A stretch of 30,062 nucleotides of DNA from Patescibacteria group bacterium. GTDB lineage: Bacteria; Patescibacteriota; JACMRA01. Positions 1 through 3,769 of this stretch are shown piece after piece. Each line of letters begins with the position of its first letter. Positions within the stretch are counted from its first letter, which is position 1. The position numbers and the translations under genes are program-made. The notes beneath the pieces were generated by a model. It worked only from the letters and a program-made list of their open reading frames with translations, made no database searches and was not told the origin of the DNA. The stretch lies in NCBI GenBank assembly GCA_029935375.1, contig JAOZKL010000001.1:3290-33351 (forward strand), written 5' to 3'.

Positions 1-723
1 TGAGAGTAAGATATTTAGAGTAGGGTGTGTGCTTAGATGATTATAGTCATCTAAAATTTGCAATATTGCTGTTCTGGAATTTTGATTTGGCTTTGCAGAA
101 TACTCTAACACTTTTGTTTGTTGAGAAATAAATTCCTTTTTAAGTTTTATAGCTATATTTTTCATGACTTTTTGTTCAGGTACTATAATTAAAATATATT
201 CTGATTTTTTGTTTTGATTATTAATCTCCTGAGACTTTGAAATAGAACTTCGTATAATATACTTTATACGAAACCAAATGTCTTTTTCAAGAAAGAAGTT
301 TACACTTTTAGTATTTTGCTTGATTTTGTTTTTGACCTCATCTTCAACCACTTCGCTTTGCTTGTTTGTAATATTATTTTTCCCACTGTTTTTTTTAGAA
401 ATTTGTTTCCAGTATTTTTCTGCAATTATTTCAAAAGCTTGCAACGATGCTTTGTATGTGCTATTTATAGAATTAAAAGTGTTATATCCAAAAAAATCCA
501 AAAATTTTAAGTGATTAAGTGGCTCTGTAATTGGATATATTCTAGATACCTCCTTTGTCTTATAGCTTGGCTTTTCTTTTTGTATACTTCGTATAACACC
601 TAAAACAGGTCTATTTCTCAATGGGACTTCAACCATAGTCCCTACTCTAATATTTTCATTAGATGAATATACAAGATATGGCACTGGTAAGGTTTTTGTT
701 AAAATTACGTTATAGAAGTACAT
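1..723 (-). CDS. priA: PriA N-terminal half (3'-DNA-binding domain plus degenerate helicase lobe 1); partial, runs off the left edge
   Basis: Not in the ORF track. Hand translation from ATG 723 gives 241 open codons. YLVYSS..IRVGTMVEVPLRNRPVLGVI matches the PriA 3'BD, and ILIIVPEQ matches motif Ia (LVPE). No Walker A precedes Ia. The ATG overlaps the upstream stop (TAATG). Confidence 0.8.
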   Translation of the reverse strand, partial: MYFYNVILTKTLPVPYLVYSSNENIRVGTMVEVPLRNRPVLGVIRSIQKEKPSYKTKEVSRIYPITEPLNHLKFLDFFGYNTFNSINSTYKASLQAFEIIAEKYWKQISKKNSGKNNITNKQSEVVEDEVKNKIKQNTKSVNFFLEKDIWFRIKYIIRSSISKSQEINNQNKKSEYILIIVPEQKVMKNIAIKLKKEFISQQTKVLEYSAKPNQNSRTAILQILDDYNHLSTHPTLNILLS

Positions 724-1247
724 TATCTAGACTTTATCTTTTTTGGAGCTATTATATAGCTTTCTATTAGATAGTATAAATAGAAGGTTACAGCATAGTT
801 AAGTGGTAGCATAATCATAAGTAATAAAAAATCATTTACTGTCAGATAATGATTGCTTTTAATATCAGATATTGTACTTGTTAGTGAAAATATGAATGGA
901 GACTCAGCAACTAGAAAAGCTGCGATTATTAACCAGTAACTCAGAACCTTTAATTTTGGAAGTATAAAATATATTAAAAAAAGAGTGCCAAGAAAACCAC
1001 TCAATATCAACATATTAGCCTCTATTATATAATTTACTACCGTTAGTATAGGTCTTCTAGTTACATCTTGATACAACACTTCACTACCATCCACTAGGTA
1101 ACTACTTAGAATGAAGGAGTTGTTTGGATCATGGCCAACAAATCTATATATTATAACAGATAACCAACTAGCTACTATTATGAAATATAATAGGAAAAAA
1201 TAGGCTCCATATTTTCTGTTCTTCTTTTTATACTCGTCTTGGTGCAT
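723..1247 (-). CDS. Hypothetical membrane protein, about 4 TM segments
   Basis: 174-aa ORF with four hydrophobic stretches; its stop overlaps the priA-N start. No family recognised. Confidence 0.75.
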   Translation of the reverse strand: MHQDEYKKKNRKYGAYFFLLYFIIVASWLSVIIYRFVGHDPNNSFILSSYLVDGSEVLYQDVTRRPILTVVNYIIEANMLILSGFLGTLFLIYFILPKLKVLSYWLIIAAFLVAESPFIFSLTSTISDIKSNHYLTVNDFLLLMIMLPLNYAVTFYLYYLIESYIIAPKKIKSR

Positions 1248-1306
1248 GAAAATTATTTATTACTTTACAAAAACACTAAAGTATATATTTATGAAATGGT
1301 CAAGTT

Positions 1307-2269
1307 ATGAAAGTTTTATTTGTCTATCCCCGTAAAGGTTTGTTTCAACTCACACAATGTAGTGAATGTCGTTATATATCTAAATGTCATTATTGTGATA
1401 CGAATTTGACGACATATCGTAAAAATACTAATAGTTTAGAGTTGATTTGTCATCAATGCCAATCGTATTACAGTTATCCTATTAAATGTCCTGAATGTGG
1501 AGCTTTGGACTCTGTATCATCAGCTTTTGGAGGTATAGAGGAGTTGGTAGAGTCTCTACAGAAGCATTTACAAGTTAAAGTTAAGCGCCTTGATCGCAAC
1601 AAATCCAAAAAAGATTCCAATTTGGAAAAAGCCTTATTAAATTCTGCAATATATAATGCATATAGTGGTGAAATATCCGTAACTACTAGAATATTCGATC
1701 CTTCTATACCCTACTCCGTCTTTGATAAAATAATCTTTGTACAAGCAGAAAACTTATTAGCGTCTCCAGACTATCTTGTACAAGAAGATATTATTGGTGG
1801 AGTGTTTCACCTTATAAACTCCATAGATAAAGATAAAACTGAGATGATTTTTGATAGTTCTGTAAAGATTGATATATTGGAAGAATTAGCTAGAAATCCA
1901 GACGCAGGTATTGAAAATTGGTATTATAATTTTTTAGAGAGTGAGTTGGATAACAGAAAAATATTTGGTTTTCCGCCATATACTAATATGTTGTTGCTTA
2001 CCTCTCAACAGAATTCTAAAGAAAAAGCTTGGAATATGATAAAAGCTGCTCAAAAAGATCTAACAAAATCTATTTCTAAATTTGAAGGTATAAAAATAAT
2101 AGATCCCTACCCGGCACGTTTTTTAAAAAGAAAAAATAAATATTCGTATCATCTGTTGATAAAATTTCCTAGAAAATATAAGGAATTTGCAAAGTTTCGT
2201 GATATTATTTTGCAAACTTCTGGAGTTTATGGTCTGCAATCTAGATTAAATCCAAAACATTTATTCTGA
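1307..2269 (+). CDS. priA: PriA C-terminal half (motif IV, Zn-binding Cys-rich region, helicase lobe 2, CTD)
   Basis: VLFVYPRKG matches motif IV (NRRG). Four CxxC pairs: CSEC, CHYC, CHQC, CPEC. RKIFGFPPY and DPYPA..KRKNKYSYHLLIK match the PriA CTD. Confidence 0.9.
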   Translation: MKVLFVYPRKGLFQLTQCSECRYISKCHYCDTNLTTYRKNTNSLELICHQCQSYYSYPIKCPECGALDSVSSAFGGIEELVESLQKHLQVKVKRLDRNKSKKDSNLEKALLNSAIYNAYSGEISVTTRIFDPSIPYSVFDKIIFVQAENLLASPDYLVQEDIIGGVFHLINSIDKDKTEMIFDSSVKIDILEELARNPDAGIENWYYNFLESELDNRKIFGFPPYTNMLLLTSQQNSKEKAWNMIKAAQKDLTKSISKFEGIKIIDPYPARFLKRKNKYSYHLLIKFPRKYKEFAKFRDIILQTSGVYGLQSRLNPKHLF

Positions 2270-3769
2270 GAGTTTGAATATTTCTTTTCTAAGATCTTTA
2301 TAACACTTCATAGAAGGTTTTATTAAAGTAGCTACTTTTTCTCTTAGAGAGAGCTCAGAGTCTTTCATATATTGATCTGTCATTCCATAGGTTGCTATGT
2401 TAAATGCTTTTTCAAGCCTTCTTTTATATGAGTTACCAGTAACCTCGTTTTCAGTTTCTTTTTGTATTGTACTGTTTAACTTATCTAGTATGCTATGATT
2501 TTTGGAGCTCAATGTGTGTCCTATTTTTTTCATCATTGCAGCTGCAGTTTCACTGTTAAATATATAACATTCTATTGCTCTGCGTCTAAGAACTCTTGAC
2601 CCGTCATTTATTTCTTCATATTTTTCTATAGAGTTTTCTGTAGGGAATTCATGATCCCTATCTCTGACCATTAACATATCAAAATCTGCAGACAGGCCGG
2701 GTTTTATTTCTTGCAATATTTGGAAGGTTCTGCCTACTTGGCTACTGCCTCTTGATGATACAAAAAGTACAGCAGGTTCGTGATTTCTAAAAATAATATT
2801 ATAGACTTTCGAATCTTCTCTTATCCCCTCCCCTTCACATATTATAAGAACTGGAGACATTTTACTCTTAACTCTCTTTTGTTTTGAGACGAGATCCATA
2901 AGACCTGCTCCAAGCATTGTACTGGCTATTTGTGTTACTTTTACACCCCAGTATCCATTTCTGCCTTTATTGCTTATATTTCCTCTTTTTGCGGCGACCC
3001 TACCTTCTTTGAGAAAATATACTTTTTGCGTTGGTTCATACTCTTTGCCTATTGCTTTGTTTATTGTATTTTTACTATCTGTTAGTTCTCCACAGCTACT
3101 AATTATAAAAGGACTGTGTGTTGCTACAAAAATCTGTATATTAAGGTTTATAGACAAATAATCTAGTATCATTGGTATTTTCTTTTGCCATGTAGGGTGT
3201 AGGTGATTTTCTGGCTCATCTAATAATATAATTTTACTTTTTTTGTGCTTATAAGACCATAGAATAGAATAAACTATGTTTATTATTTTATTTTCACCTC
3301 CGGTAAGTTGCTCATCTTCAAGATCTTCAGGTTTTATTAATTTTGTATCGTTTTCTAGGTCTAATATCGCTAGTTCATTTAATATTTGGAATACTCCTGT
3401 TAATATGTCCATGTCTAATATTTGCCAATCTCTTTTTTCTCCTTCTAAACTAGAGGAGTACCCAAGTAGGTTAAGCGTTATTATATTGTCATTTTCTACT
3501 AAATCTAAATATATCTTTTTCCATTTTTCAGTTATGTTTTCAGTTTGGCAAGTACTGTTAAAATCTACAAGATTAACTACTTCAACAGATGTTAGAGAGT
3601 CTTTGAGAAGCATCGTTTCTTCTTTAAAATTATCATATAGATAGTCTATTACACTGCTTTTGCCACTGCCGTTCACTCCAACCATATAATTGACCAAAGC
3701 AAGTCTGTCCAACAAAACCCCTGGTTTGCTTATTCTTTTATAGTTTTCTATTTTGATCTTGTTTAACAT
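2261..3769 (-). CDS. OLD-family ATP-dependent nuclease (ABC-type ATPase plus TOPRIM domain)
   Basis: Walker A GVNGSGKS, signature LTGGE, Walker B/D-loop ILLDEPENHLHP and H-loop VATHSPF, then TOPRIM glutamate IICEGE and DxD motif VRDRD. Confidence 0.8.
   Translation of the reverse strand: MLNKIKIENYKRISKPGVLLDRLALVNYMVGVNGSGKSSVIDYLYDNFKEETMLLKDSLTSVEVVNLVDFNSTCQTENITEKWKKIYLDLVENDNIITLNLLGYSSSLEGEKRDWQILDMDILTGVFQILNELAILDLENDTKLIKPEDLEDEQLTGGENKIINIVYSILWSYKHKKSKIILLDEPENHLHPTWQKKIPMILDYLSINLNIQIFVATHSPFIISSCGELTDSKNTINKAIGKEYEPTQKVYFLKEGRVAAKRGNISNKGRNGYWGVKVTQIASTMLGAGLMDLVSKQKRVKSKMSPVLIICEGEGIREDSKVYNIIFRNHEPAVLFVSSRGSSQVGRTFQILQEIKPGLSADFDMLMVRDRDHEFPTENSIEKYEEINDGSRVLRRRAIECYIFNSETAAAMMKKIGHTLSSKNHSILDKLNSTIQKETENEVTGNSYKRRLEKAFNIATYGMTDQYMKDSELSLREKVATLIKPSMKCYKDLRKEIFKLSE

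Follow-up and report, generated by a model that had tools for sequence, protein, structure and literature searches.

The stretch analysed here (the window, 30,062 nucleotides (nt); contig JAOZKL010000001.1 of assembly GCA_029935375.1, positions 3,290 to 33,351, forward strand) comes from a Patescibacteria group bacterium and opens on priA, which is encoded there by two separate genes on opposite strands. PriA is conserved among bacteria and is regarded as a helicase made of one chain. The genome under study (G000) is a metagenome-assembled genome (MAG) of 0.91 Mb with 34% G+C that is 85% complete; the window corresponds to G000:C66:3290-33351, and locus L002 to C66:1-6000. Bare positions below are those of the window. 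Three open reading frames (ORFs) fill positions 1-2269, at 1-723 (-), 723-1247 (-) and 1307-2269 (+). They lie as a first-pass annotation of this sequence had described them, with an N-terminal part of PriA (N-half) reading leftward from 723, a coupled membrane gene of 174 amino acids (aa), and a C-terminal part (C-half) from 1307 with stops at 1277 and 1292. The features of this region, with the gene that follows, are:

1-723 (-): PriA N-half, codons 1-241 of 359; the frame is open at the window edge and ends with a TAA at C66:2942
439-723 (-): 3' DNA-binding domain, N-half residues ~1-95 (Pfam PF17764 on residues 16-91)
244-294 (-): Walker A position, reading F-L-E-K-D-I-W-F-R-I-K-Y and lacking GK[ST], as aligned with four motif-intact Patescibacteria PriAs
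723-1247 (-): membrane-protein gene, a 174-aa hydrophobic ORF that is not part of PriA
1248-1306 (no strand): AT-rich spacer of 59 nt between the divergent membrane/N-half operon and the C-half
1307-2269 (+): PriA C-half, 320 aa, with the motif-IV strand and the remainder of RecA lobe 2 (degenerate), the Cys-rich zinc region and the C-terminal domain (CTD)
1358-1498 (+): Cys-rich region with four CxxC pairs (C18/C21, C27/C30, C48/C51, C61/C64)
1976-2176 (+): PriA CTD, C-half residues 224-290 (Pfam PF18074)
2261-3769 (-): OLD/PtuA-like ATPase of the AAA_21/AAA_15 kind, 502 aa (Pfam E 2.2e-17; NCBIfam PtuA 5.3e-14, far under the cut-off)

The N-half gene spans 1.07 kb to its TAA, which lies just beyond the left edge of the window. 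It had been predicted from the visible part that this frame would run roughly 120-130 codons further and stop before motif IV; the contig holds 115 further codons and then the TAA. A Cys-rich region and a CTD, which would be expected if the two genes were paralogues, are both absent from the extension. The complete N-half comprises the 3' DNA-binding domain (Pfam PriA_3primeBD, PF17764, 27.5 bits against a cut-off of 22.7), a helical linker in the place of the winged helix of E. coli PriA, a RecA lobe 1 that is degenerate and, beyond the window edge, the strand and helix that open lobe 2. In its AlphaFold model, the predicted local distance difference test (pLDDT) score is 86-93 across residues 1-100. 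The C-half carries Pfam PriA_C (PF18074, 43.5 bits against 26.9) and matches positions 205-481 of the PriA model TIGR00595 (E 1.9e-32); the best TIGR00595 score is 112.5 bits against an equivalog cut-off of 230.35, so that the equivalog level is not reached. No further PriA-like gene was found in G000, where the remaining weak TIGR00595 matches are other helicases.

Together, the two halves account for one PriA. Alignments were built from 17 N-halves (A2), 17 C-halves (A1) and seven full-length Patescibacteria PriAs (A3). By hhalign, the N-half family corresponds to positions 1-338 of the full-length PriA profile (probability 99.6, E 1.8e-24) and the C-half family to positions 341-649 (probability 99.9, E 7.9e-34). 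The halves thus abut on the PriA profile, with nothing missing or duplicated, and concatenates of N-half and C-half are colinear with the full-length proteins in a joint alignment. Structural comparison agrees with this assignment. All eight of the top PDB matches of the N-half AlphaFold model (mean pLDDT 77.5) are PriA chains (best E 1.6e-9), and the N-half family profile retrieves PriA chains only (E 1e-7); a phmmer search of the PDB with the single N-half returned nothing relevant, and it took the family profile and the predicted structure to reach these matches. The C-half likewise retrieves only PriA chains (E 1.5e-14) and aligns from residue 437 of the Klebsiella pneumoniae PriA chain 4nl4. 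The PriA alignment also bears out the earlier proposal of a C-half that begins with the motif-IV strand. Rather than at the linker between the lobes, the cut falls inside RecA lobe 2, between the first strand-helix unit and the motif-IV strand. From the alignment and the usual topology of superfamily 2 (SF2) helicases, the end segment of the N-half would be strand 1 and helix 1 of that lobe. The pair has the 3' DNA-binding domain, two colinear RecA-like SF2 lobes, four CxxC pairs inserted in lobe 2 and the CTD. By architecture and fold the locus belongs to the PriA lineage, and it lacks two canonical features, the helicase motifs and the single chain.

The loss of the helicase motifs extends across the split proteins. 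We scanned for motifs I (GxxGSGKT), II (DExH) and VI (QxxGRxGR) and found neither a P-loop nor DExH in any of the 17 N-halves and no motif VI in any of the 17 C-halves; all three motifs were recovered in four of the seven other Patescibacteria PriAs, which served as positive controls. The place of motif II mostly reads h-h-x-D-E-(A/S/G)-N, and L-L-E-E-A-S in G000. G000 retains the 3' DNA-binding domain, the CTD and the full set of eight zinc ligands, and 16 of the 17 C-halves keep all four CxxC pairs. The C-half of G003 (L031:2254-3270 (-)) is without four of the eight zinc-binding cysteines, and its outer two CxxC pairs remain. With the PriA architecture kept and the helicase motifs degenerate, as in the pseudohelicase of Deinococcus, the PriA of G000 can be classed from its motifs as a pseudohelicase. 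The three fused close relatives that were checked (P0021, P0026 and P0028) also lack the ATPase motifs, which suggests that the ATPase was lost before the fission or together with it. Three more distant fused PriAs from other Patescibacteria families (G031, L055; G029, L057; G036, L053) are without Walker A and motif VI, and loss of the PriA ATP site seems to be recurrent in the phylum.

Examination of related genomes, as the first-pass annotation had proposed, revealed the same split throughout the GTDB family. The C-half is present in 24 of the 25 other species genomes of the family, which cover 17 further genera, in frames of 305-426 aa plus two fragments that end at contig ends. The N-half was matched in 23 of the 24 family genomes first searched, in frames of ~320-500 aa, and an additional N-half fragment was recovered next to the C-half in G001, so that the N-half, too, is known from 24 of the 25. 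What is missing from the family search is the C-half of G016 and the N-half of G002, both of them genomes that are ~85% complete. The only genome of the sister family (G025) encodes one fused ORF of 808 aa, and more distant members of the phylum have single ORFs of 600-720 aa. Among 1.84 billion representatives searched, the C-half finds 42 clusters (50% identity) at E<1e-30; the majority of these are 305-340 aa long and share the start residue, and three are fused (695, 708 and 808 aa). A scan of genome contigs with the single protein found nothing, and an alignment-based scan gave 21 loci with organism labels. Between close pairs, dN/dS (the ratio of nonsynonymous to synonymous substitution rates) ranges from 0.17 to 0.29 for each half and points to purifying selection on both; dS is close to saturation. 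Several C-halves carry insertions at one variable loop after ~residue 100 (P0002, L047:1773-2936, L044:1875-3002, G011, G021 and G023); the insert of P0002 is ~215 aa long and contains a DUF559 endonuclease domain (E 1e-21).

The arrangement of the two genes differs between genera:

Adjacent, co-directional halves, with TAA stops or overlapping stop/start: G001, G004, G018, G019
Co-directional halves with 0.76-1.9 kb of unrelated DNA between them: G007, G017, G022
Divergent halves with the membrane gene: G000, G003
Membrane gene adjoining the C-half, N-half on another contig: G005
Halves on different contigs, some >150 kb: G006, G008, G009, G013, G014, G015, G020 and others

Where the halves are adjacent, the junction consists of a TAA in G004 and G019, an overlapping TGATG in G018 and a 4-nt overlap in G001. 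The DNA between the halves encodes a TerD-domain protein in G007 (L041:3192-3797) and, on the opposite strand, a Phd/PIN toxin-antitoxin pair in G022 (L044:4131-4803). Homologues of the 174-aa membrane protein occur only in G003 (36% identity) and G005, where the gene again lies divergent to the C-half. Maximum likelihood on the concatenated halves makes G000 and G003 sisters (support 96/96). The first-pass annotation had derived the divergent layout from one inversion through an intact priA. This origin is unlikely: several genera keep the halves as separate genes that are adjacent and co-directional, and only the clade of G000 and G003 has the divergent layout, from which we infer that the inversion acted on genes that were already separate. 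The simplest history is fission in place, then dispersal, and then an inversion in the ancestor of the G000 and G003 genera.

Two candidates for a split outside this family were rejected. P0068 (L079:2024-4017) is a motif-intact PriA on a single 66-kb metagenome contig; its ORFs of 323 and 338 aa are divided beside the run CCCCGCCC, their frames fit a one-base indel, and the division may reflect misassembly or a recent frameshift. P0108 sits at a contig end. Neither is evidence of a second conserved fission.

We also examined whether the layout in G000 could be a product of assembly or of the genetic code. A scaffold gap of 10 N lies inside the N-half (L002:3280-3289), directly left of window position 1; runs of 10 or 100 N occur throughout the assembly as scaffold gaps. 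Six public runs contain this DNA: the best are hydrothermal-vent metagenomes, and a marine-sediment run of another study has part of it. We compared independently assembled contigs over L002:2400-5800. Contigs of runs X2 and X4 span the gap with nine extra letters, making the true gap 19 nt, and the gap-filled N-half stays in frame at 359 aa. The visible inserted letters read G-I-F-I before P-I-P-D-L and restore the 'G-I/L-F-x-P' stretch that is conserved in the family. A 2379-nt contig of run X1 covers L002 3335-5713 with 0 differences and includes the 5' part of the N-half, the membrane gene, the 59-nt spacer and the entire C-half. The misassembly that had been considered for ~1250-1306 is thus not seen; the independent contig crosses the junction without a difference. 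Contigs of four runs have one orientation only, and contigs may hide rare variants. A joint of opposite strands, L002 4419 to 5349, occurs in run X2 only. It has GATC sites at both ends, and many loose contig ends in X2 and X4 likewise begin with GATC, the two runs resembling proximity-ligation libraries; on these grounds we read the joint as a proximity-ligation chimera and not as an inversion.

Some SR1/Gracilibacteria read TGA as glycine. The labels of related MAGs include SR1 and Gracilibacteria, and a crude ORF count is higher when TGA is read through. An alternative code with TGA as a sense codon is nevertheless ruled out by rpoB and rpoC, which lie in open frames of 1065 and 1328 aa with no internal stop, and by the TAA stops at the junctions. 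The standard genetic code applies in G000.

The two halves are predicted to bind each other. Co-folding the N-half with the C-half, a check that had been suggested in the first-pass annotation, supports binding with a score of 0.82, and the best of three controls scored 0.01. In calibration, 58 of 80 solved complexes and 2 of 110 mismatched pairs attained this mark. The predicted interface includes N-half residues 294-355, which have low confidence (pLDDT 52-66) when the N-half is folded alone. A tail that is poorly ordered alone and takes part in the co-fold interface fits the complementation of lobe 2 in trans.

Our preferred reading, which we regard as likely, is that priA underwent a fixed and ancient fission at the base of one Patescibacteria family or close to it, when PriA was already ATPase-dead, and that its chains reassemble as a passive scaffold. 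The part of the first-pass annotation that proposed a fixed fission and a two-chain PriA gains support from the split at the same alignment position across the family, from the purifying selection on both halves and from the co-fold against its controls. The two chains would reassemble non-covalently as a PriA-shaped heterodimer in which the N-half tail completes lobe 2. Modelled on the helicase-dead PriA of E. coli and Deinococcus, this heterodimer would recognise abandoned forks and recruit the replicative helicase as a passive scaffold. DnaB is present in G000 (C90:2334-3668, 504.5 bits); DciA was not found in this 85%-complete genome, and no conclusion is drawn from that. After their separation, the pair of genes would have drifted apart differently between genera, and the divergent layout with the membrane gene would be a later inversion in the common ancestor of the G000 genus and one sister genus. 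Why a fission within lobe 2 was tolerated is a more tentative matter. Loss of the ATP site may have licensed it by freeing the lobes from ATP-driven opening and closing, so that a cut in lobe 2 could be borne through fragment complementation and a two-subunit restart scaffold could arise, its subunits possibly regulated independently; to this proposal we would give slightly less than an even chance.

Several observations weigh against the preferred reading. In the gene tree, the fused protein of G025 is placed within the split clade (91/93), on a long branch. We did not adopt a re-fusion in G025, given that long branch and an approximately unbiased (AU) test that is compatible with one split clade (a single clade of split forms is not rejected, p 0.216). 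The co-fold calibration applies only roughly here, as our own shallow alignments (17 rows) were used, and the score may owe its height to single-chain PriA structures that the model has memorised. Binding in the heterodimer and its role in restart are predictions. The halves are unlinked in many genomes, and their co-regulation is not guaranteed. All genomes compared are incomplete MAGs (64-93%). Finally, run X1 may be the MAG's own source sample, in which case the agreement of its contig tests the assembler and not the biology.

The strongest competitor, which we consider unlikely, is subfunctionalisation, in which the halves would now be independent proteins that form no PriA-like complex; the N-half, for example, could be a stand-alone binder of 3' ends or forks and the C-half a zinc-finger/CTD adaptor. 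The dispersal of the genes is in keeping with this, with halves on different contigs in most relatives and separated elsewhere by unrelated genes (TerD in G007, Phd/PIN in G022), as are the N-halves of G017, G018 and G022, which do not have the tail that forms much of the interface predicted in G000. Yet nearly every genome of the family has both halves, the cut runs inside a RecA-like domain and leaves neither chain with a whole lobe 2, and the co-fold score stands far above that of the best control. A decaying pseudogene, or an artefact of assembly or scaffolding, might be suspected from the scaffold gap within the N-half, the incompleteness of the MAG and the degenerate helicase motifs. The artefact part of this explanation is refuted, as two other runs bridge the gap in frame and an independent contig covers the junction. 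As for decay, both ORFs are intact in ~25 species at the low dN/dS given above, and fused relatives that are likewise conserved show the same motif losses; we regard the explanation as a whole as very improbable.

The first-pass annotation had also raised an invertible DNA switch, in which site-specific inversion of the segment with the N-half and the membrane gene would toggle priA between split and colinear forms. The geometry permits it, in that an inversion would give both halves the same orientation. The genes would still be separate after such an inversion, however, given the TAA of the N-half, the C-half's own ATG and the intervening stops. No inverted repeat pairs L002 ~2942 with ~4560, and the repeats that had been expected at the 3' end of the N-half to match ~1250-1306 are absent, only short AT-rich chance matches being found. 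The identified neighbours are xseA and the OLD-type ATPase, with no recombinase among them (one ORF further left was not checked). A single orientation was assembled in the four runs, the lone opposite-strand joint fits a proximity-ligation chimera, and the split also occurs in relatives with unlinked halves. In most relatives the halves are either unlinked or co-directional, an arrangement that an inversion could not rejoin. The switch is largely refuted, and its probability is in our view lower still than that of decay or artefact. Least probable of all is that the two chains are joined after translation, for instance through a split intein of the kind known from cyanobacterial DnaE. Genes of split inteins can also lie apart and on opposite strands, as these halves do, but the alignment refutes this possibility, since the chains end at adjacent profile positions (338/341) and have no extra residues for intein halves (~100 + 35).

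Known PriA proteins offer precedents for each of the two peculiarities. In D. radiodurans, PriA is a pseudohelicase and has kept its binding to DNA and DnaB (Lopper, Boone and Morrow 2015, PMC4504706). Like it, the PriA of G000 is a conserved PriA homologue without functional helicase/ATPase motifs; the motif loss is independent of the Deinococcus case, which is in a different phylum. Unlike the single polypeptide of Deinococcus, the PriA of G000 consists of two genes that are often unlinked among its relatives. In E. coli, the priA300 allele (K230R) abolishes the ATPase and leaves cells nearly wild type, showing that the ATPase is dispensable for most restart (PMC5778457). E. coli PriA keeps almost full function when it is produced in two segments, cut at residue 154/157 (PMC5778457), and this laboratory form (an insertion-154 suppressor with a restart at 157) shows that PriA can work as two non-covalently associated chains. 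That split is artificial, lies in the flexible winged-helix linker and is ATPase-proficient, whereas the split in G000 is natural, conserved and placed between helix 1 and strand 2 of RecA lobe 2. The PriAs of E. coli and K. pneumoniae (PDB 4NL4, 6DGD, 8FAK) share the domain order and fold with that of G000; they are single-chain, active SF2 helicases of ~730 aa, in contrast to the ATPase-dead protein split in lobe 2. In a search of open-access papers that was not exhaustive, we found no description of a natural split PriA.

If the preferred reading is correct, a family that keeps PriA as two genes without an ATP site, often unlinked, is a natural experiment on replication restart. Recognition of 3' ends and forks, the zinc module and the CTD would be candidates for what is indispensable, and motor activity and covalent continuity for what can be dispensed with. 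The lineage would also offer a ready-made two-piece PriA with which to dissect helicase-recruiting surfaces in bacteria without PriB and DnaT. Both halves are under the equivalog cut-off, and annotation pipelines will therefore miss or mislabel priA in this lineage.

To the left, the TAA of the N-half directly abuts the 3' end of xseA (Pfam Exonuc_VII_L, E 7.7e-62), and to the right the gene for the 502-aa ATPase converges on the C-half and overlaps its final 9 bases. Between the halves, the TAA of the membrane gene and the ATG of the N-half overlap by one base, and the spacer carries in-frame stops (TAA at 1277 and TGA at 1292) upstream of the ATG of the C-half. A scan for promoters and terminators was uninformative in this AT-rich DNA, with 28 sites against 16.8 expected and none within the 59-nt spacer. 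Neither Pfam nor NCBIfam gave a significant match to the 174-aa membrane protein, and a decayed copy of its gene with three stops lies at G000:C107:16300-16707.

A second core gene, alanyl-tRNA synthetase, is also apparently split in G000, and would be a second fissioned core gene if so. Positions 1-253 of TIGR00344, the aminoacylation domain, are matched in a 316-aa frame at G000:C94:3422-4330, and positions 266-690 in a 343-aa frame at ~18004-19064 of the window (C66:21305-22288).

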